A stretch of DNA of 54,578 bases from Candidatus Saccharimonadales bacterium (GCA_041744275.1 JBGTLD010000025.1:1-54578), one strand, 5' to 3'; shown: positions 9,471-48,492, counted from the first letter of the stretch. Translations and numbers: made by a program. Notes: a model not told the origin generated them from the sequence alone.

Positions 9471-10241
9471 CTAGAATATGCTCTTACGTCGGTTTCGCAA
9501 GTAGTGCGTTGCACCAGCAGCGATTGTTGTTGCTGCAGGAATCGCTAGTAATGAACCAGCACCAGTGTTCGGGAGTACCTTTGCTGTTTGTACTGGTCGT
9601 TCTACCTCAACTCGCACTTCACGGTCAACAGGAACTTCCACAGGAACCTCAACTCGCACTTCACGGTCAACAGGAACTTCCACTGTTTCGGTGACAGTTA
9701 CAGTTTCTGTTTCAGTAATCACTTCTTGACACGCAGGGTTTGCGATAACAATCGCGTTCATGCGTCGTCCGTCATAGAATGGTCCGTTAGGGAATGGGTG
9801 GCTTGGATCAGCTCTTTGACCGCCTCGTACCAAGTCAATCTGTAAGAAACATTTGTCATCACTTGTTGGAAGTGCAGTTGTAATGTCATGTGTTGCAAAC
9901 GCTTGGTTTGTTTGGGTCGCACGGTTACCAAAGCTTCTAGTCGTTCCATTAAAGAATTCCTGGTCTTGCAATCGCTCACCTTCGTTGTACATCCAAACAG
10001 CGATACTAACTTCAGCAGGAGCACAATTCACATCACCAGAGATACTAAATCGCCCAGTAACAGTGTTATTAGCTTCATTTATAGTAAAACCACCATAATC
10101 ACCACTTACAGCACATTCATTACGTGTTGATGACGTGTCATTTGGACGTGTGAAATGCTGCGCATTCACTACTGGAGCGTACGCGCTAACTCCTAAGGCT
10201 ATAAACGTGCTCGCTGCGAGAGCTTTAAATGCTATCTTCAT
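9471..10241 (-). CDS. LPXTG-anchored surface protein
   Basis: Signal peptide (..GVSAYAPVVNAQ). C-terminal LPNTG, then a hydrophobic stretch, then RNRRK. Internal VEVPVDREVRVE repeats. Confidence 0.8.
   Translation of the reverse strand: MKIAFKALAASTFIALGVSAYAPVVNAQHFTRPNDTSSTRNECAVSGDYGGFTINEANNTVTGRFSISGDVNCAPAEVSIAVWMYNEGERLQDQEFFNGTTRSFGNRATQTNQAFATHDITTALPTSDDKCFLQIDLVRGGQRADPSHPFPNGPFYDGRRMNAIVIANPACQEVITETETVTVTETVEVPVDREVRVEVPVEVPVDREVRVEVERPVQTAKVLPNTGAGSLLAIPAATTIAAGATHYLRNRRKSIF
9605..9683. repeat. 42-bp tandem repeat (2 copies) inside the LPXTG gene
   Basis: CCTCAACTCGCACTTCACGGTCAACAGGAACTTCCAC occurs at 9605 and again at 9647. Confidence 0.9.
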
Positions 10242-10460
10242 AAAATGGTACTCCTTAAACTCTTAACTTAGATTATTATATCACACAATGTAAATAAACG
10301 CAAGCATATTATTAAACCTATACTAATCGTACTATGGCTTACATTTTCAGTTCTTTCTATGAAGTATCTTACCAATTTTTAAATACGCACACTGAAATAA
10401 AAGTATTGTGCAGGCTTGCATATGTAGATAGAATCAATCTTGTTGTTTAATGTTTATCTT

Positions 10461-19982: not shown

Positions 19983-21107
19983 ATGGCAGGTAAGATTAAA
20001 GTTGCAATCGTAGGGGTGGGTAACTGTGCATCGTCTCTCGTGCAAGGGATTCATTACTACAGAGACGCAAAAGACGATGAGCACATTCCAGGACTTATGC
20101 ATACGAATTTTGGTGGGTATCACATTCGGGACATAGAAATTGTGGCTGCATTTGATGTGAATACAAATAAAGTAGGAGTAGACGTCGCAGAGGCAATCTA
20201 TGCTCGTCCAAATAATACGGCGATATTTGCTGAAGTGCCAAAAATAGGGGTAACAGTGCTTCGAGGTCCAAGGCTAGACGGTGTGAATAAGTACACCGAA
20301 GCAGTTGTTCCTGTTTCTGATGCCCCAGAAGTCGATGTAGTGCAGGTGTTAAAAGATACTGGCGCAGAAGCTGTTATAAACTATTTACCAGTTGGTTCTC
20401 AGGAAGCTACAGAGTTTTATGCACAGGCTTCTATAGATGCTGGGTGCGGTTTCGTAAACTGCATACCGGTGTTTATTGCAAGTAATCCTGTCTGGGCTAA
20501 AAAGTTTGAAGACGCCGGATTGCCAGTAATTGGTGATGATATTAAGGCGCAGGTTGGCGCCACTATTGTGCACCGTACACTTACGAACCTATTCTTAGAC
20601 CGTGGTATGAAAATTGAAAAAACATACCAACTAAACGTTGGCGGTAATACTGACTTTATGAACATGCTCGAGCGAGAGCGACTCACAAGTAAGAAAGAAT
20701 CTAAAACTAAGGCCGTGACCTCAATGATTGAAGCTCGTGGTCAAACCATTCATGAAGAAGATGTACATGTTGGCCCAAGTGACTATGTGCCGTGGCTCAA
20801 AGACAATAAGGTCTGTTACTTGCGGATCCAGAGCAGACATTTTGGTGATGTGCCTATGGATGTCGAGGTGCGTCTTAGTGTTGAAGATTCACCAAACTCA
20901 GCTGGTGTTGCTATAGATTCAATTCGCTGCTTAAAGCTTGCACTGGATCACGGGTTAAAGGGGGCAATTGTAGAGCCCGCTGCTTTCTTCAAGAAACACC
21001 CACCAAAGCAAATAGAAGATCGTCATGCAAAAGAGCTCGTCGAGGCATATATTGTCAAATATGGTAAGAAGCAAGTAGCTCGTAAGAAACAAACCGTCAA
21101 AGCATAG
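19983..21107 (+). CDS. ino1: myo-inositol-1-phosphate synthase (inositol-3-phosphate synthase)
   Basis: [22 protein letters not shown]-terminus and an overall bacterial/archaeal MIPS pattern. GGAGA RBS. Confidence 0.85.
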
Positions 21108-21184: not shown

Positions 21185-24067
21185 ATGAAACGCTACAATC
21201 CGAAAGACGTCGAGCCAAAGTGGCAAAAAATCTGGGAAGAGTCACAGCTATACCGGGCTAATGATGTAAGCAAAAAACCGAAATACTACGCGCTCAGCTT
21301 TTTTCCATACCCGAGTGGTGTTGGACTTCACATTGGCCATACTCGAAACTTCACCATTACTGACGTTATTGCGCGCTACAAGAGGCTCCAAGGATATGAG
21401 GTACTTCACCCGATGGGCTGGGATAGCTTTGGGTTGCCAGCCGAAAACTTTGCGATCAAAACCGGCACGCCACCTCAAGTAACTACCAAACAAAACACCG
21501 ATAACTTCCGGGCACAAAGTAAACGACTTGGTCTGTCGATTGATTGGAGCCGTGAGTTTGGCTCAACTGATGCTGATTATTACAAATGGACGCAGTGGTT
21601 TTTCTTATTGCTCCATAAGCGTGATTTGGCGTATCGCAAAGAAAGCCTACAGTTTTGGTGTAATGTTTGTAAAACAGTGCTTGCGAATGAACAAGTCGTG
21701 AATGGCTGTTGCTGGCGCCACGAAGATATACCTGTGACGAAAAAGAATTTGCCGCAGTGGTTCTTTAAGATAACCAACTATGCAGATAGGTTGGCACAAG
21801 ATCTAGATAGTCTTGACTGGCCCGAGGGTATTAAAGCCATGCAACGCAACTGGATCGGCAAAAGTACTGGTGCTGAAGTAGATTTCCAGATTGTGGACTC
21901 AAACGAAAAGCTACGAGTTTTTACGACAAGACCAGACACGTTATACGGTGCGACATACATGGTTGTTGCTCCAGAACATCCTTTACTGAAGGAAATAACT
22001 ACTTCTGAACAAAGGACGAGCGTTGATAGCTACGTCGCAGACGCAATAACGAAGACCGACATTGATCGCATGGACGACTCACGAGAAAAAACCGGCGTAT
22101 TTACGGGCGCTTATGCGGTAAATCCGGTTAATAAAGAACATATCCCAATATGGGTAGCAGATTATGTATTGGCGGGTTATGGTACCGGCGCGATCATGGC
22201 GGTACCGGCACACGATGAACGTGATCATGAGTTCGCGGTTCAATATTCACTGCCTATTGTTCGGGTTGTAGAGCCTACTGCAGGCGAAGCCACTGGCGAC
22301 GACACTCATAAAGAATCTGTTTTTGTGGCGTTACGAAACCCTGCGAATAACACTGTTCTTGTGCTGGACTGGGGTCCACGTCAAGAACGATTCGGTGGTA
22401 AGATGCTGATTGGTGGAGGCGTAGAGGGCGACGAAAGTCACCAAACTACCGCAGAAAGAGAAATTGTAGAAGAAACAGGTTACAAAAACCTTACATTTGT
22501 GAAAGAGACTGACTACAAAGGTCACGGTTATTTCTACTCAAACACGAAGCACAAAAACATGCATGTGAGTGGCAAGGGCTTGTTATTTGATTTGATAGAC
22601 GAAGAGCAGGCAGCTACGAACCTGGATGAAGGTGAAAAGAATAAATTTACCATCGCTTGGGAGCCAATAGAAAAAGTTGCCAACTTGCTAGATGATGGCG
22701 TGCACGAAGCGATGTATCGAGATTTGGTACTTGGCGAGTGCTATCACGACGAAGGTTTGATGGTGAATTCTGGGGAGTATAGCGGTATGAGTTCTAGTGA
22801 CGTCCGCGAAAAGATTGTCGTTGAACTGAATGCGCGTGGAAACGGGGAAGAGAAGATAAACTTTCGGATTCGTGACTGGTTAATAAGTCGCCAGCGCTAC
22901 TGGGGGGCTCCCATCCCGATTATTCACTGTGAAAAATGTGGCACGGTACCGGTGCCTGAAGAACAGTTACCGGTTGTATTACCTGAGCTTGAAGATTTTC
23001 AGCCAAAAGATGACGGCCGTTCACCGCTCGCACATATTGATGAGTGGGTGAACGTCGACTGTCCTGAGTGTAGCGGTCCGGCAACTCGTGAGACAGACAC
23101 CATGGATGGTTTTGCGTGCAGTAGCTGGTATTTTTTGCGGTTTACAGATCCGCACAATGACTCAGTTGCGTTTGGCCGTGAGCTTGCTGAAACATGGATG
23201 CCGGTTGATATGTATGTTGGCGGCGCAGAACATGCGGTAATGCACTTGCTGTACGCCCGGATGTGGACAAAAGTCATGCACGACGTTGGGCTTATTAGTT
23301 TTGATGAGCCATTTAAAGCACTCCGTAATCAAGGCATGTTACTCGCAGAAGACGGAGAGAAAATTAGCAAAAGCAAAGGCAACGATATCAGGCCTGAAGA
23401 AATCATTGACAACGGCTATGGCGCTGATGCGTTGAGGCTCATTGTGTTATTTCTTGCGCCTTATAGTCAGTCAACTCCGTGGAGTAATGAAGGTTTGGGC
23501 GGCGTTTACCGGTTCTTGCAGCGTGCTTGGACAATTACAAACGAATACATAGATGCCAGCGAGCCAACATCTGATACACAATCCTCAGAACTTCTCGTAA
23601 CCCGAAGTAAAGCCGTAAAGAAAGTCACTGAAGATCTTGAAGATATGAGTTTCAACACCGCGATTGCAGCTATGATGGAGTACGTTAACGAGCTCTATAA
23701 ACTCAAGCTTAATATTGCATTCAGCGATACTGCTTGGAAATCAGCAATAGAGGCGCTTGTACTCATGCTTGCGCCGTTTGCGCCGCACATGACTGAGGAG
23801 CTTTGGCAACAGTTAGGGAATAAAACATCAGTACACACTGCTGATTGGCCATCGTGGGACGATCAATTACTTGCTACGGACACAGTCATTGTTGTGGTGC
23901 AGGTAAATGGGAAGGTTCGGGCTGAAATAGAAATAGACAAAAACATGCCTAAGGATGACGCACTGAAGCTAGCATTACAAAACGAAAAAGTGGCCAGCTT
24001 TATAGCTGACCACCCAGTCAAGAAATCTATTTATGTTCCCGGCCGAATCATCAATTTCGTGATCTAG
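21185..24067 (+). CDS. leuS: leucyl-tRNA synthetase with inserted Nudix domain
   Basis: HIGH (HIGHTRN), the CP1 editing region (TTRPDTLYGATY.., AVPAHDERDHEF) and KMSKS (KISKSKGN). At 960 aa it is about 100-150 aa longer than typical. The extra segment at 22277-22753 carries a Nudix box. Confidence 0.95.
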   Translation: MKRYNPKDVEPKWQKIWEESQLYRANDVSKKPKYYALSFFPYPSGVGLHIGHTRNFTITDVIARYKRLQGYEVLHPMGWDSFGLPAENFAIKTGTPPQVTTKQNTDNFRAQSKRLGLSIDWSREFGSTDADYYKWTQWFFLLLHKRDLAYRKESLQFWCNVCKTVLANEQVVNGCCWRHEDIPVTKKNLPQWFFKITNYADRLAQDLDSLDWPEGIKAMQRNWIGKSTGAEVDFQIVDSNEKLRVFTTRPDTLYGATYMVVAPEHPLLKEITTSEQRTSVDSYVADAITKTDIDRMDDSREKTGVFTGAYAVNPVNKEHIPIWVADYVLAGYGTGAIMAVPAHDERDHEFAVQYSLPIVRVVEPTAGEATGDDTHKESVFVALRNPANNTVLVLDWGPRQERFGGKMLIGGGVEGDESHQTTAEREIVEETGYKNLTFVKETDYKGHGYFYSNTKHKNMHVSGKGLLFDLIDEEQAATNLDEGEKNKFTIAWEPIEKVANLLDDGVHEAMYRDLVLGECYHDEGLMVNSGEYSGMSSSDVREKIVVELNARGNGEEKINFRIRDWLISRQRYWGAPIPIIHCEKCGTVPVPEEQLPVVLPELEDFQPKDDGRSPLAHIDEWVNVDCPECSGPATRETDTMDGFACSSWYFLRFTDPHNDSVAFGRELAETWMPVDMYVGGAEHAVMHLLYARMWTKVMHDVGLISFDEPFKALRNQGMLLAEDGEKISKSKGNDIRPEEIIDNGYGADALRLIVLFLAPYSQSTPWSNEGLGGVYRFLQRAWTITNEYIDASEPTSDTQSSELLVTRSKAVKKVTEDLEDMSFNTAIAAMMEYVNELYKLKLNIAFSDTAWKSAIEALVLMLAPFAPHMTEELWQQLGNKTSVHTADWPSWDDQLLATDTVIVVVQVNGKVRAEIEIDKNMPKDDALKLALQNEKVASFIADHPVKKSIYVPGRIINFVI

Positions 24068-25097: not shown

Positions 25098-25568
25098 ATG
25101 GCATCAAACCGTCACCTCGGTCGAATTATTGCATTACAGACTCTGTACGAACAGGATTTTCGATTGGAGTGTCAAGACACGACGTTTGATGTTGATGAAG
25201 TACTGCAACGTAACATAAAACGATACGCTGCAATGGTAGATGATCGGGAGTTTATTCGCAGTGTTGTTGCTGGTGTAAATAGGAATAAGGAAGAAATCAC
25301 CAAGATTCTTCAGCCAATCGCTCCTGACTGGCCAATAGATCAGATTGCACGCATGGATCGCATTGTACTTTTGATGGGTGCATACGAGTTACTTCACGGT
25401 ACTGATGTGCCGCCGAAGGTCGCGATTAACGAAGCGGTAGAGCTTGCAAAAGCTTTTGGTGGTGAGAATTCGAGTAAGTTTATAAACGGGGTACTCGGAA
25501 CAGTGCTCCGAGACAAAGAACAAGGTAGTGATCAAGCTGCCGGTACAGAATCCAAGGATAAGAAGTAG
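25098..25568 (+). CDS. nusB: transcription antitermination factor NusB
   Basis: RIIALQTLYEQDF.. and ..INEAVELAKAFGGENSSKFINGVLG. Confidence 0.9.
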   Translation: MASNRHLGRIIALQTLYEQDFRLECQDTTFDVDEVLQRNIKRYAAMVDDREFIRSVVAGVNRNKEEITKILQPIAPDWPIDQIARMDRIVLLMGAYELLHGTDVPPKVAINEAVELAKAFGGENSSKFINGVLGTVLRDKEQGSDQAAGTESKDKK

Positions 25569-26070
25569 TTACGTGAAAAGACCAAAGCCGATACAAGGTT
25601 TAAAGAAGTTTGTGAAGCGCCGCCCAGCTATTAGTGAGGTCGTGCGTGAGCCTACTGCTGGTGGGGTTATTTTTCGGCGTAACAAGCAATCAAACGAAAT
25701 AGAAATACTTCTTATTCAGGACGCAAAGGACAGGTGGACTATTCCTAAAGGCCATATCGAAGAGGGTGAAAAGTCGCGCGAAACTGCAGAGCGTGAGATC
25801 CGTGAAGAAACTGGCTTGAAAGAAATGAAAGTACTCAACTGGCTTGGTAAAATAAACTTCAGATACCGACGAGTTTCTAGTTTGGTACTTATGACAACCG
25901 AGATATTCCTTGTGCGTGCACTGGGTGATACCGATGATTTAACACCAGAAGATTGGATGAACGGTATCCAGTGGTTTACCGCAGCAGAAACGCTCGATAA
26001 AATCGAGTACGAAGACATTGGTAAGATTATACTTTTAGGGCTTAAAAAAATACGGAGTGAGCAGTTGTAG
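25528..26070 (+). CDS. NUDIX hydrolase
   Basis: Nudix box GHIEEGEKSRETAEREIREETGL. The real start may be the GTG at 25573, just after the nusB stop. Confidence 0.85.
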   Translation: MIKLPVQNPRIRSSYVKRPKPIQGLKKFVKRRPAISEVVREPTAGGVIFRRNKQSNEIEILLIQDAKDRWTIPKGHIEEGEKSRETAEREIREETGLKEMKVLNWLGKINFRYRRVSSLVLMTTEIFLVRALGDTDDLTPEDWMNGIQWFTAAETLDKIEYEDIGKIILLGLKKIRSEQL

Positions 26071-26072
26071 CT

Positions 26073-26768
26073 ATGGATTCAGAGAAGTATCAAGAATTTG
26101 CTGAATTAACTCTTGGTGGTCGATTTCATAATGTAGATCTACTTATGACAGCATTCACGCACCGATCGTACGTGAACGAGCACAGAAAAACTGCCAAAGA
26201 ACACAACGAACGGCTTGAGTTTCTTGGTGATGCGGTGTTGGAATTGGTCGTTACTCAATATTTATACGGTAATTTTACTGATCCGGAGGGCGTGCTGACG
26301 AACTGGCGGAGCGCGTTAGTGCGAACCGAAAGTATTGGCGACGCTGCCATGCGCTGCGAGTTTGAGCCACTCCTTCGTTTGAGTCGTGGTGAAAAACGTG
26401 GCACGGACAGGGCTCGAGCACAGATTCTTGCGAATGCATACGAAGCTGTTATTGGTGCGTTGTACCTTGATCAAGGCTACGACAATGCGAAAGAATTTAT
26501 CGAAAAGACGCTACTTATTACGTTTCAGGAAATCCTTAAAACTGGTTCATGGATGGATCCAAAGTCACATCTGCAAGAAATTGTGCAAAGCCATGAAGGC
26601 CATACGCCGCATTATAAAGTGATTGAAGAAACTGGCCCTGATCACGACAAGAACTTCACGGTTGGTGTGTTTGTTGATGGAAATCTGAAAGGGACAGGAC
26701 AAGGTCCAAGTAAGCAAGCTGGGCAAGTCGCTGCTGCTGAAGCTGCGCTTTTAACATATAAAGATTAG
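26073..26768 (+). CDS. rnc: ribonuclease III
   Basis: ERLEFLGDAVLELVV signature plus a C-terminal dsRBD. Confidence 0.95.
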   Translation: MDSEKYQEFAELTLGGRFHNVDLLMTAFTHRSYVNEHRKTAKEHNERLEFLGDAVLELVVTQYLYGNFTDPEGVLTNWRSALVRTESIGDAAMRCEFEPLLRLSRGEKRGTDRARAQILANAYEAVIGALYLDQGYDNAKEFIEKTLLITFQEILKTGSWMDPKSHLQEIVQSHEGHTPHYKVIEETGPDHDKNFTVGVFVDGNLKGTGQGPSKQAGQVAAAEAALLTYKD

Positions 26769-26797
26769 GCGCTTCGTCGTAACCTCGAGGTGATTAT

Positions 26798-26826
26798 TTG
26801 ACAACAGGGGTGATTACCGGTAAAAT
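26798..26826 (+). promoter_or_regulatory. sigma70-like promoter upstream of rpsP
   Basis: TTGACA, a 17-nt spacer, then TAAAAT. Confidence 0.55.
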
Positions 26827-26865
26827 ACAACGGTATTAAATAACCCTAACAGGGAAGGAAATAGA

Positions 26866-27270
26866 ATGTTAGTCATTCGTATGCAGCGAACTGGCCGTAC
26901 CGGTCACGCTCAATTCCGCGTAGTCGTTCAAGATTCACGCCGGACCCCTACAAGTGGTCGCGTTGTAGCTGCCCTCGGTAGTTATAACCCTCACACAAAA
27001 GAATCAACACTTAACAAAGAAAAAGCTGCGTTGTATCTAAGTAATGGCGCACAGCCGTCAGACCGTGTCATTCGACTCTTGCAGGCTGAAGGCGTAAAGC
27101 TACCTGATTGGGTAGAAGTACCCGACCAAAAACAGCGTAAAACGAAGAACGTTGAGAAATTACGTAAGAACCGACCAGCTGAAGAGCCGGTTACTGAGGC
27201 GGCACCTGAAGAGGTCGAGTCAGTCGAACCTGCAGATTCTACTGAAGAATCTGCAAAAACAGAAGACTAA
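26866..27270 (+). CDS. rpsP: 30S ribosomal protein S16 with acidic C-terminal extension
   Basis: MLVIRMQRTGRTGHAQFRVVV..GSYNP. Confidence 0.95.
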   Translation: MLVIRMQRTGRTGHAQFRVVVQDSRRTPTSGRVVAALGSYNPHTKESTLNKEKAALYLSNGAQPSDRVIRLLQAEGVKLPDWVEVPDQKQRKTKNVEKLRKNRPAEEPVTEAAPEEVESVEPADSTEESAKTED

Positions 27271-45487: not shown

Positions 45488-46405
45488 ATGAAAAAAAGCA
45501 AACAAAAAAACAGTGAGGGTACGTCTGCAGCCTTTGTTTTGTTTGGCCTCATATGTCTTGGACTGCTTGTCGCAGTGTTACTGAGCGGAAAAGACATAGC
45601 ACTTTTTAATCCGAAAGGTGTTATTGCGCAGGAACAATATAGCTTGATGCTCTATTCAATGGCAATAATGCTCCTAATTGCCGTTCCGGCTGTAGCGCTC
45701 TTGTACTACTTTGGCTGGAAATACAGAGAGACTAATACAAAGTCTATGTATAGCCCTAATATGCGTCAGGGGAAACTGTTTGAATTTGGTTTGTGGGCAA
45801 TCCCAAGTTTTTTTATGATTGTCCTTGCATTCATAATGATACCTGCAACGCATAGACTTGAGCCACAAAAGGCTATTGCGTCCGACAACGAAGAGATTAC
45901 TATTCAGGTTATTGCGTTACGCTGGAAGTGGCTCTTTGTGTACCCTGAGCAAAATATAGCAAGTGTAAATTTTGTTCAGATTCCGGTTGATACGCCAGTC
46001 AGATTTGAATTGACAGCAGACGAAACGCCCAAGAGCTCTTTTTGGGTACCACACCTTGGCGGTCAACTATATGCAATGACTGGTCATGTGAACCCACTGT
46101 ATCTTATGGCTGAGGACGTCGGGGATTATCCAGGTAGCTCTGCCGAGATAAACGGAGCTGGATATGCAGGTATGAAGTTTACGGCTCGTGCCACAACAGA
46201 AGCTGACTTCAATAAATGGGTGCGTGACACACAAAAATCATCTAATCTTTTAGACCCTGCGGAATATGAAAATCTTTTGATTCCTTCCGAAAGAAACTCA
46301 TTCGCAACGTATTCATTAGACTATCCAGATCTGTATGCTAAAATGCTTATGAAATACGCAGGTTCGCATAGTCACCAACCACAGATATACCATACGGAAC
46401 ACTAA
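45488..46405 (+). CDS. cyoA: cytochrome o (bo3-type) quinol oxidase subunit II
   Basis: Two N-terminal TM helices plus a cupredoxin fold without CuA ligands (..FWVPHLGGQLYAMTG..). It sits directly upstream of cyoB. Confidence 0.85.
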   Translation: MKKSKQKNSEGTSAAFVLFGLICLGLLVAVLLSGKDIALFNPKGVIAQEQYSLMLYSMAIMLLIAVPAVALLYYFGWKYRETNTKSMYSPNMRQGKLFEFGLWAIPSFFMIVLAFIMIPATHRLEPQKAIASDNEEITIQVIALRWKWLFVYPEQNIASVNFVQIPVDTPVRFELTADETPKSSFWVPHLGGQLYAMTGHVNPLYLMAEDVGDYPGSSAEINGAGYAGMKFTARATTEADFNKWVRDTQKSSNLLDPAEYENLLIPSERNSFATYSLDYPDLYAKMLMKYAGSHSHQPQIYHTEH

Positions 46406-48492
46406 TGAAAGAATTACTACTTGGAAAATTGGACTGGAGTGCTTTACCGCATGAATGGTTCACAATTGCCGGCACAATACTCACGATAATCGCATCGATA
46501 TTTTTTATTGTGGCGATGTCTCGTGCAAAGCGCTGGAAGTGGCTATGGAATGACTGGCTGACGACTGTTGATCCGAAAAAAATTGGAATCATGTATTTCC
46601 TTGTGGGTGGTTTCATGCTTCTTCGTGGAGGGTTAGATGCGGTCATGATTTGGCTGCAGCAAGCGGTTGCTGTTGACAGCTCACAGGGATACTTGACCGC
46701 TGATCACTTCCAGCAGATATTCACTGCACACGGCAATATTATGGTCTTTTTTGTGGCCATGGCCTTTGTTTTTGGCCTTATAAATTACATTGTACCGCTA
46801 CAAATTGGTGCACGCGATCTGGCATCTCCTTTTTTGAACACCTTGGGCTTCTGGCTATACGTAGCTGGCGTTATTATGGTCAATATATTTTTCTTGTTTG
46901 GCGGCGAATATGCTGCTACCGGCTGGCTAGCAATCGCACCTTTGAGCGGGCCCGAATTTAGCCCTGGTGTTGGTGTTGATTATTTAATATGGAGTCTACA
47001 GATTTCAGGTATTGGAACAACTTTAGGCGCGATTAACTTTATTATGACAATACTGAAGATGCGTGCGCCTGGGATGACTCTCATGAAAATGCCTTTGTTT
47101 ACCTGGGGTTCCTTGTGTAGTATGGTCATGGCCGTTACGGTATTTCCACTCCTCACAATGACACTTTTCTTACTGTTTTTTGACCGTTATATAGGCACAA
47201 ACTTCTTCACCATTAGTGGGGGCGGTAATCCTATGATGTACACGAATCTTATATGGATGTGGGGCCATCCTGAGGTGTATATTCTGATGCTTCCATCATT
47301 TGGGGTGTTCTCGGAAATAGTCACAACCTTTAGCCGTAAACGTATTGCAAGTTACGTATCGAATGTAGCGGGTATGATTGGCGTTTCGTTGCTTGCGCTT
47401 TTGGTATGGCTTCACCATTTCTTTACAATGGGAGCTGGTGCGAACGTAAACGCCTTCTTTGGGGTTATGACAATGATAATTGCCATACCTACTGGAGTAC
47501 TGGTGTTTACCTGGATTGCCACAATGTACAAGGGCCGAATACGGTTCGATACACCGATGCTCTGGTTTATGGGTTTTATTGGCACGTTTACAGTCGGTGG
47601 TTTGACAGGCGTACTCTTAGCCATACCGCCAGTTGATTTCCAGCTTCATAACAGCTTATTTTTGGTAGCACACTTCCATACTATGGTTATCGGTGGCGTA
47701 CTGTTCGGTATTTTTGCAGGATTATCATACTGGTTCCCAAAAATGACTGGTGTGAAATTAAACGAGCGTATTGGTAAATACGCATTTTGGACTTGGCTTG
47801 TTGGTTTTGTTATGGCGTTTACTCCGCTCTACATACTTGGCCTTATGGGGGCTACGAGAAGACTTGATAACTACGATTCATCTACTGGGTGGCAGCCGTT
47901 TTTTATCATGGCGTTCATTGGAGGGTTGATCATTTGTCTTGGAGTAATTTTGCAAATAATACAAATTATCGCGAGTTTGATCCAGAAGAGGCATCTACTC
48001 GATACAACTGGCGATCCGTGGGATGGGCGAACGCTCGAATGGGCCACGCCGTCACCGCCACCATTTTATAACTTTGATGTCATTCCAAAAGTTCGGTCTC
48101 GTGAAGCATTTTGGGAAATGAAGCATTTACACCATCCTAAATTAGTATACGAAGACATTCTTATGCCAAAAAACACAGCTTCCGGCATCTATATATCTGG
48201 TTTTGCCTTCTTAGCTGGCTTTGGCTTTGTGTGGCATATCACGTGGCTTATCATCGTGTCATTGATTGGTATTGTTGTGTGTGCAATTATGCGCACATTC
48301 AACGAAGATACAGAGTATGTTTTGACTGCTGCTGAGGTAGAAAAAATCGAGCAAGCCAGAAAGAAAAAAATGCAAGTCGCACTCTCAAATAAAGACAAGG
48401 GCTCTGGTGAAGATATGAAACTACAAGAGTTTATTGTGATTGTGTACAAGTGGGCTGTGAACGCTATAAGGAAGAGACAATGGCGCACTTAG
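46405..48492 (+). CDS. cyoB: cytochrome o quinol oxidase subunit I
   Basis: Heme-copper oxidase motifs (WMWGHPEVYIL, HHFFTMG, HFHTMVIGG). 695 aa. Confidence 0.95.
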   Translation: MKELLLGKLDWSALPHEWFTIAGTILTIIASIFFIVAMSRAKRWKWLWNDWLTTVDPKKIGIMYFLVGGFMLLRGGLDAVMIWLQQAVAVDSSQGYLTADHFQQIFTAHGNIMVFFVAMAFVFGLINYIVPLQIGARDLASPFLNTLGFWLYVAGVIMVNIFFLFGGEYAATGWLAIAPLSGPEFSPGVGVDYLIWSLQISGIGTTLGAINFIMTILKMRAPGMTLMKMPLFTWGSLCSMVMAVTVFPLLTMTLFLLFFDRYIGTNFFTISGGGNPMMYTNLIWMWGHPEVYILMLPSFGVFSEIVTTFSRKRIASYVSNVAGMIGVSLLALLVWLHHFFTMGAGANVNAFFGVMTMIIAIPTGVLVFTWIATMYKGRIRFDTPMLWFMGFIGTFTVGGLTGVLLAIPPVDFQLHNSLFLVAHFHTMVIGGVLFGIFAGLSYWFPKMTGVKLNERIGKYAFWTWLVGFVMAFTPLYILGLMGATRRLDNYDSSTGWQPFFIMAFIGGLIICLGVILQIIQIIASLIQKRHLLDTTGDPWDGRTLEWATPSPPPFYNFDVIPKVRSREAFWEMKHLHHPKLVYEDILMPKNTASGIYISGFAFLAGFGFVWHITWLIIVSLIGIVVCAIMRTFNEDTEYVLTAAEVEKIEQARKKKMQVALSNKDKGSGEDMKLQEFIVIVYKWAVNAIRKRQWRT

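Follow-up and report, generated by a model that had tools for sequence, protein, structure and literature searches.

The stretch of DNA analysed here (the window: 54,578 nucleotides from a Candidatus Saccharimonadales bacterium, GCA_041744275.1 JBGTLD010000025.1:1-54578) contains a leuS gene for a leucyl-tRNA synthetase (LeuRS; LeuS for the window protein and its homologues) that carries a Nudix domain nested within its CP1 editing domain. This LeuRS is the housekeeping enzyme of a Saccharibacterium (order Saccharimonadales of the candidate phyla radiation, CPR). The leuS product scored 1042.7 bits against the equivalog profile TIGR00396 (leuS_bact; cut-off 548.4). The AlphaFold2 (AF2) model of the full-length protein had a mean predicted local distance difference test value (pLDDT) of 90.8, and its best Foldseek match in the PDB was the E. 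coli LeuRS-tRNA aminoacylation complex (template modelling score, TM, 0.79/0.88; root-mean-square deviation, rmsd, 3.9 Å). The protein belongs to the same family as the bacterial LeuRS of known structure (T. thermophilus 1H3N/2BTE; E. coli 4AQ7/5OMW), is 40% identical to the T. thermophilus enzyme and shares with them the HIGH and KMSKS signatures, the CP1 editing motifs, the zinc motifs and the C-terminal domain. PF13603, the Pfam model of the editing domain, matched with 223.6 bits. HIGH, KISKS, T247/T248/T252 and D344/D347 do not vary among 92 homologues, and the host enzyme appears to be fully functional; the editing role of the Thr-rich motif residues is established for LeuRS. Judging from these synthetic and editing motifs, the enzyme presumably still charges tRNA-Leu and proofreads. 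The leucine-specific domain, typical of many bacterial LeuRS but not universal, is present in the T. thermophilus and E. coli enzymes and absent here: query residues 722-726 (window 23348-23362) span residues 580-637 of the T. thermophilus protein, where this domain lies. It is likewise missing in relatives that have no insert.

The borders of the insertion were determined by alignment to T. thermophilus LeuRS (1h3n). Query residues 1-364 correspond to T. thermophilus 1-364 and query residues 517-722 to 374-580, so that about 152 residues stand where the reference has about nine (CP1 turn, T. thermophilus 364-374). The AHDERD segment ends about 17 residues ahead of this point. The PF13603 match is broken into two stretches, the first of which stops at residue 372 (profile position 150 of 185), and this places the insertion inside CP1. 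Insert-less relatives read VV-xPxxPTEG-C(F/Y)xGEG at the junction, which gives a net insertion of about 150 amino acids. The original prediction, made from the sequence of the window, had put an insert of about 159 amino acids at 22277-22753; its start stands, and its last seven residues (ECYHDEG) belong to the host. The excised 159-residue segment matched PF00293 with 45.6 bits (E 8.9e-12; gathering score 21.1 bits). The Nudix box, GGVEGDESHQTTAEREIVEETGY, is intact and lies exactly where it had been placed, at residues 411-433. In a six-frame translation of the window the strict pattern GX5EX7REUXEEXGU occurred only twice, in the leuS insert and in a separate gene at 25528-26070, and it did not occur in 200 shuffles. 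The GC content of the insert (0.450) shows no compositional break from the rest of leuS (0.466). Coordinates of the features can be seen in Table 1.

Table 1. Features of the leuS gene and its nested Nudix module. Coordinates are those of the window; residue numbers are those of the LeuS protein; A2 is an alignment of inserts.
Feature	Coordinates	Strand	Basis or remark
leuS, host of the insertion	21185..24067	+	960-aa leucyl-tRNA synthetase; open reading frame list, TIGR00396, AF2, Foldseek
HIGH signature, synthetic site (residues 49-52)	21329..21340	+	motif search; H49, G51, H52 invariant in 92 homologues
TTRPDT, Thr-rich editing motif of CP1 (residues 247-252)	21923..21940	+	T247, T248, T252 invariant in 92 homologues
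AHDERD, editing-site segment (residues 342-347)	22208..22225	+	H343, D344, R346, D347 invariant in 92 homologues
Nudix module replacing the CP1 beta-hairpin turn (residues ~365-516)	22277..22732	+	1h3n alignment gap, split PF13603, insert-less relatives, AF2, Foldseek
Pfam PF00293 NUDIX match (residues 375-511)	22307..22717	+	41.9 bits, E 1.2e-10, whole protein
Nudix box G411-Y433, GX5EX7REUXEEXGU	22415..22483	+	includes predicted metal-binding/catalytic E426, E429, E430
K455, invariant Lys beyond the box	22547..22549	+	A2 column K94; candidate phosphate ligand
E484, invariant Glu 54 residues past the box, loop ahead of last strand	22634..22636	+	A2 column E123
W492, invariant Trp, last beta-strand of the module	22658..22660	+	A2 column W131
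KISKS = KMSKS signature (residues 726-730)	23360..23374	+	S728, K729, S730 invariant in 92 homologues

In the full-length AF2 model the insert had pLDDT values of 86-96 per 10-residue block, its order of strands and helices ended in two helices and the box lay on a predicted helix (residues 419-431). The excised domain also folded independently when modelled alone with AlphaFold, as the original prediction had proposed to check (pLDDT 93.5; predicted TM score, pTM, 0.88), with a helix at positions 58-70 of the domain over the box. When the insert model was searched against the PDB with Foldseek, the best 50 matches were all Nudix proteins and 465 matches were found at E<=1e-3; the possibility that the segment has no Nudix fold fails on this result. 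The top match was an uncharacterised E. faecalis protein (2azw; E 5.8e-12, TM 0.68/0.75), followed by NudI, E. coli RppH, the Aquifex Ap4A (diadenosine tetraphosphate) hydrolase, NudB, the human Ap4A hydrolase and MutT1. The TM score was 0.60-0.66 with E. coli RppH, including the Ap4A-bound form 7sp3, and TMt was 0.77 (rmsd 2.9-3.3) with the Aquifex enzyme 3i7u, and the scores of NudI, NudB and MutT1 were similar to these. A profile of the insert searched against the PDB also reached the lupin Ap4A hydrolase and the decapping effector AvrM14. A Foldseek search of the PDB with the full-length model found no solved LeuRS with an enzyme domain nested in CP1. Together, PF00293, the 1h3n alignment, the AF2 fold and the Foldseek matches bear out the claim of a complete Nudix domain inside LeuS, and we regard it as practically certain that the segment is a genuine one. 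In the models, it folds as an independent domain in the turn of the CP1 beta-hairpin.

Residues of the module were then compared across 33 diverse inserts, which are on average only 46% identical per column. G411, R425, E426, E429, E430, T431, G432, K455, E484 and W492 were invariant, and E417, A423, Y433 and H507 nearly so. From its conservation, E484 is a candidate extra metal ligand or general base. Such a pattern would be expected for a catalytically active Nudix enzyme with a downstream Glu and a basic phosphate ligand, and the conserved Glu and basic residue after the box are also shared with Nudix enzymes of the RppH and Ap4A-hydrolase type. RppH/NudH, the Ap4A hydrolases (4S2X/7SP3, 3I7U, NUDT2 4IJX) and 2AZW have in common with the insert the fold, the catalytic box and the size of about 150 amino acids. 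However, the insert is only 15-23% identical to these small Nudix hydrolases, scores below every curated subfamily cut-off, is nested rather than free and has motifs of its own family, namely WG...GG ahead of the box and SNxKN and EKxKFxxxW after it. In the representative set of module copies, 129 of 164 keep the strict box and 35 (about 21%) do not; most multi-copy LeuS have at least one copy with the strict box, the extra copies being decayed. On the strength of this conservation, the insert is probably catalytically active.

In the survey of LeuS orthologues that had been proposed, 113 of the 120 best matches to the full protein had this architecture (110 of 919-987 amino acids and three longer ones). 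These matches have 55-63% identity and precomputed PF00293 hits, derive from NCBI, JGI, ENA and Logan assemblies and, where named, are nearly all assigned to Candidatus Saccharimonadales or Saccharibacteria. More than 100 independent Saccharimonadales LeuS clusters carry the insertion, which is lineage-wide in this order. A scan of GTDB species genomes for the insert subtype of the window returned 23 loci, nearly all in Saccharibacteria metagenome-assembled genomes (MAGs) and including Ca. Saccharimonas and Ca. Microsaccharimonas; the scan used subtype-specific peptides (alignment A3), so this taxonomic breadth is a lower bound. Saccharibacteria-type Nudix leuS genes were also seen in MAGs named Limnocylindria, Nomurabacteria, Acidoferrum and Gammaproteobacteria (L018, L022, L024 and L025). 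Some of these are probably mis-binned, and the Nomurabacteria-named case could reflect a wider distribution in the CPR. Among insert-bearing LeuS the mean pairwise identity was 47% for the insert and 63% for the body. Public records name these proteins leucine--tRNA ligase or class I tRNA ligase family protein and attach PF00293 matches to them automatically. Full-text literature searches found no published description of the LeuRS-Nudix architecture, and no curated model for LeuRS plus Nudix was found in an NCBIfam-type profile library. In a domain-insertion survey of 2026 the LeuRS editing domain figures as an inserted module alone, never as a host, and Nudix is not mentioned. The component families are known; the nested, exchangeable arrangement is new. 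At the level of annotation there is a precedent in NCBIfam NF040702 (ileS_w_GNAT), compared by model name only, which likewise combines a class Ia synthetase with a small-enzyme domain, although its host is IleRS and its guest an N-acetyltransferase.

The original prediction had not included the location within CP1, the Saccharimonadales-wide presence or the behaviour of the module as a cassette that is exchanged and multiplied. When a tree was built from the LeuS body, enzymes of 813-832 amino acids without the insert stood at no fewer than five separate places among insert-bearing ones, and the closest body relative of the window LeuS (P0017, 72% identity) has no insert. The clearest case is a pair of alleles, P0040 (970 amino acids, with the module) and P0107 (814 amino acids, without it), which are 97-99% identical beyond the junction and have the same neighbourhood. 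In their DNA (L001 7053-7839 compared with L004), about 0.5% of sites differ over 8 kb, whereas about 55 mostly third-position differences are concentrated in about 260 nucleotides just 3' of the 468-nucleotide indel. This cluster of differences bears the signature of a homologous-recombination tract by which the module was gained or lost. Hosts with 93% identity can hold inserts of only 28-29% identity, i.e. different subtypes, and hosts of 52-56% identity can hold inserts that are 77-80% identical; for the window LeuS and P0097 the values are 53% for the host and 77% for the insert. Host and insert identity correlated weakly (r = 0.44). No relatives of the insert were found in phage genomes and records or in IMG/VR contigs, and a plasmid search returned only two remote generic Nudix proteins, on non-mobilisable plasmids. 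These searches point to exchange by ordinary recombination rather than by a mobile element, and the module appears, from the allele comparisons, to be exchanged among leuS alleles by ordinary homologous recombination.

Module copies were not confined to one site. Out of 95 mapped copies, 77 lie at the canonical CP1 hairpin (364/517), 15 at about residues 205-245 at the CP1 entry, often as a tandem pair, two at about 620-635 and one at about 580-590; 92 are thus in CP1 or at its start. LeuS representatives of at least 900 amino acids comprised 30 with one copy, six with two and three with three. Three copies were seen in the homologues P0121, P0122 and P0139, and two in P0128, P0130, P0131, P0132, P0134, P0142, P0160 and P0193. 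Other small enzymes are nested in LeuS relatives as well. A serine alpha/beta-hydrolase (PF06821/PF00561) is nested near residue 240 (about 240-440) in P0181, P0188, P0079 and P0046. Further guests, in P0206, P0238 (about 640-808) and P0260 (815-940), are a HAD phosphatase (PF13419) and an uncharacterised nucleotidyltransferase (PF14907), with nesting points near residues 631 and 663, respectively. At locus L028 (6386-9889) an IleRS-like synthetase of 1167 amino acids contains a nested histidine phosphatase (PF00300) and is followed after 2 nucleotides by a 141-amino-acid Nudix gene (9891-10316). The module also colonises a non-synthetase host: P0154 (1318 amino acids, ENA contig) is an M17 (leucyl) aminopeptidase with two GNAT and two insert-family Nudix modules in its N-terminal 1050 residues.

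With regard to the origin of the module, the suggestion that it derives from the standalone Nudix gene at 25528-26070, 3 kb downstream, was rejected. The likeness is confined to the box (14 of 29 identities), and with the insert profile this gene scored 29.9 bits, over profile positions 42-85 only, compared with scores of 236 for the insert itself and 107 for a true standalone relative. It is part of a block nusB - Nudix - rnc - rpsP (window 25098-27270) that is conserved downstream of leuS in related loci and that continues with KH-domain and trmD genes in L001 (9639-13774). The gene belongs to a different Nudix subfamily, with its best weak similarities to MutT1 and RppH and a weak match to PADLOC PDC-S07; its mechanically assigned GTG start overlaps nusB by 41 nucleotides, so translation may in fact begin further downstream. 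Yet another type of Nudix gene (231 amino acids, DUF7347 plus NUDIX; 17 bits only with the insert profile) was observed 36 nucleotides upstream of leuS in the population of P0040 and P0107 (L001 5269-5964). True relatives were obtained from an exhaustive search of 1.84 billion representatives with the insert profile, which gave 356 proteins at E<=1e-10. Among the best 150 of these, 110 are LeuS or LeuS fragments, a share that is inflated since the profile was built from LeuS inserts, and the other 40 are mostly standalone proteins of 143-200 amino acids with proper Met starts. A 5.8-billion-protein index yielded no match to the insert alone and only four standalone matches to the insert profile, its word index being too insensitive for this purpose. 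The standalone relatives share the motifs peculiar to the module family, and a separate family of standalone Nudix proteins of about 155-170 amino acids is a plausible source.

Six standalone relatives were sampled in rank order, representing five distinct gene contexts. One lies 13 nucleotides downstream of argS (L028 3279-5498), one ends 4 nucleotides ahead of a valS-like gene (L033) and one ends 2 nucleotides ahead of a leuS gene that itself carries the nested module. Two share the order bacA-ndk-Nudix, and the sixth has neither a synthetase nor an ndk arrangement. For L033 a reading as a split LeuS was rejected; the neighbours are a TsaD fragment and the ValRS-like gene. Class Ia synthetase genes thus abut standalone relatives in three of the five contexts. 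As a rough estimate from a small sample, this is far above the few per cent expected for about 20 synthetase genes per genome. At L030 (4249-8933) a two-Nudix leuS overlaps an upstream Exo_endo_phos gene by 4 nucleotides and is followed after 7 nucleotides by a HIT-family gene (PF01230); HIT enzymes hydrolyse aminoacyl-adenylates and ApnA. In the window, a myo-inositol-1-phosphate synthase gene (19983-21107) lies directly upstream of leuS, and a haem-copper oxidase subunit I (COX1, 695 amino acids) is encoded at 46405-48492. In a small-genome lineage, these two genes suggest an aerobic, environmental Saccharibacterium.

Our favoured reading is that the module is an active nested Nudix pyrophosphohydrolase that acts on an adenine nucleotide linked to aminoacylation, most likely of the Ap4A type; taken as a whole, we consider it evenly balanced between right and wrong. 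In this scheme leuS would have captured the module from the standalone family, and homologous recombination would trade it between alleles. The domain would bind Mg2+ through E426, E429 and E430, assisted by E484 and K455, and would hydrolyse an adenine-nucleotide by-product of aminoacylation, most likely Ap4A or another Ap4N, free or as 5' RNA caps. Nesting would tie the clean-up of dinucleotides to the enzyme class that produces them. RppH and the Ap4A hydrolases are the closest structural neighbours with a known function, which makes Ap4A and Ap4N the leading candidates. A link to aminoacylation is suggested by the synthetase genes that adjoin standalone relatives and by the HIT gene at L030. 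The proposed logic, removal of adenylated by-products of aminoacylation, is that of free-standing enzymes, of which HIT/Hint proteins act on aminoacyl-adenylates and ApaH, YqeK and Nudix Ap4A hydrolases on Ap4A; these are separate proteins, whereas the hydrolase of the present case is built covalently into the synthetase.

Several observations weigh against this reading. No curated Nudix subfamily was matched by the insert (RppH 20.3 bits compared with a cut-off of 116; no MutT, NudC or ADPRase equivalog, with no match to TIGR00586 for the 8-oxo-dGTPase MutT and only a weak MutT1 score of 12.8 bits), and its closest structural match, 2azw, is functionally uncharacterised. ArgRS is not known to produce Ap4A, so the neighbourhood evidence is not specific to Ap4A. 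These three points make the assignment of substrate weak, and an aminoacylation-linked nucleotide such as Ap4N is put forward only as a tentative candidate. The module is also dispensable, as can be seen from the module-free allele and from the scattered insert-less LeuS, and the fact that it occurs at several insertion sites speaks against strict geometric coupling with any single active site. Insert and body gave raw pN/pS values of 0.37 and 0.36, respectively, and synonymous sites were saturated in all 105 pairs (pS about 0.83), so there is no usable dN/dS for comparing the two.

Dispensability and the use of several surface loops would also fit a generic house-cleaning Nudix, e.g. one acting on damaged nucleoside triphosphates, that is parked in leuS without any coupling to LeuRS; in a tiny genome with few regulators it would gain co-expression with an essential gene. 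The nesting of unrelated small enzymes (serine hydrolase, HAD, nucleotidyltransferase) in LeuS homologues, the two standalone members that adjoin ndk and the presence of NudI, NudB and MutT1 among the structural neighbours agree with this view. However, nesting recurs although it is mechanistically harder than end-to-end fusion, nearly all mapped copies are in or at the start of CP1, standalone members lie beside class Ia synthetase genes, and LeuS is the dominant host, with the bias of the LeuS-built profile in that count. We consider a merely parked enzyme unlikely. The copies that lack a strict box could instead indicate a Nudix fold without catalysis, which would sense nucleotides or bind tRNA or a partner and so influence editing or aminoacylation, perhaps making up for the lack of a leucine-specific domain; CP1 is known to be a mobile, tRNA-contacting domain. 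Such a role is distinctly unlikely, since REx2EE and E484 are invariant in all single-copy inserts examined, which is unexpected for a pure scaffold, and the insert-less relatives also have no leucine-specific domain (813 amino acids equals 960 minus about 147), so that no pattern of compensation is seen.

The location in CP1, which binds the CCA end, would also suit repair of tRNA ends. In this case the Nudix domain would remove a pyrophosphate-type lesion such as the 3'-pyrophosphorylation made by toxic small alarmone synthetases (toxSAS), and the nested phosphatases, nucleotidyltransferase and hydrolase of relatives (HAD, His_Phos_1, NTP_transf_5 and Ser_hydrolase, in LeuRS or IleRS) would supply complementary repair steps. 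Fast gain, loss and swapping are typical of conflict genes. ToxSAS toxins pyrophosphorylate the tRNA CCA end and hydrolases can reverse this (10.1101/2021.04.30.441581). The case is entirely circumstantial, though: the same work credits the reversal to small alarmone hydrolase (SAH) enzymes only and makes no mention of Nudix, neither a toxSAS nor any other toxin was seen nearby, and cleavage by a Nudix domain would leave behind a 3'-phosphate for a second enzyme to deal with, which the window LeuS does not have. Neither the insert nor the standalone relatives matched a PADLOC defence family, and PHROGs gave generic Nudix families only. We hold this role to be improbable. The cassette-like turnover is equally compatible with a built-in immunity against antibiotics that mimic aminoacyl-adenylates (the toxic moiety of agrocin 84, microcin-C-like compounds, sulfamoyl-adenosines), which would be made by neighbouring or host bacteria and destroyed at their target. 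LeuRS is a known target, with LeuRS-TM84 and Leu-AMS complexes in the PDB, and the GNAT, serine hydrolase and HIT modules in or beside these synthetases resemble the enzyme classes known from microcin C immunity, namely MccE, MccF and MccH. It is very improbable, because Nudix enzymes cleave pyrophosphate linkages and these mimics carry acyl-sulfamate or phosphoramidate links; moreover, a biosynthetic or transporter context was not found, nor was an experimental precedent in the literature. Finally, presence/absence polymorphism and several insertion sites might be produced by an artefact or a selfish element, i.e. an assembly chimera, as had been considered at the outset, an intein or a mobile-element insertion. 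We rejected these, and their probability is negligible: the same in-frame architecture recurs in over 100 independent assemblies, the GC content shows no break, the whole insert is a Nudix fold with no endonuclease or splicing domain, no relatives were found on phage records, IMG/VR contigs or mobilisable plasmids, and the polymorphic junction looks like an ordinary homologous-recombination tract.

A broader and more speculative proposal can also be made. The cassette turnover and the variety of nested hydrolases are as one expects of conflict-related functions, although the searches gave no match to a defence family and no toxin context. In Saccharibacteria and other CPR bacteria, LeuRS and further class Ia synthetases might be docking platforms for exchangeable small-enzyme cassettes that protect translation where it is most vulnerable, an immunity layer within the translation apparatus that recombination shuffles between strains. 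The cassettes would comprise one to three Nudix copies, a serine hydrolase, a HAD or histidine phosphatase, a nucleotidyltransferase and a GNAT domain. Their roles could be the repair of toxin-modified tRNA acceptor ends by removal of 3'-pyrophosphate, or the destruction of adenylate mimics at the target. The proposal as a whole is offered as a long shot.

Few enzymes are as conserved as the aminoacyl-tRNA synthetases, and the bacterial forms are thought to be nearly fixed in architecture. Here a whole second enzyme is nested in a proofreading domain and conserved across an order of ultra-small epibiotic bacteria, yet the module can be present or absent between near-identical alleles, is swapped between subtypes and reaches up to three copies. 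The alleles P0040 and P0107, with and without the module, are a natural pair and a ready-made experiment. Since leuS is a common marker gene, nested domains matter for phylogenomics and annotation, and they are also relevant to the design of antibiotics against LeuRS. If the Nudix domain does act on a product of aminoacylation or on tRNA, it would represent a new form of quality control or defence wired into a synthetase, and it would provide a biochemical handle on the poorly understood physiology of the CPR.

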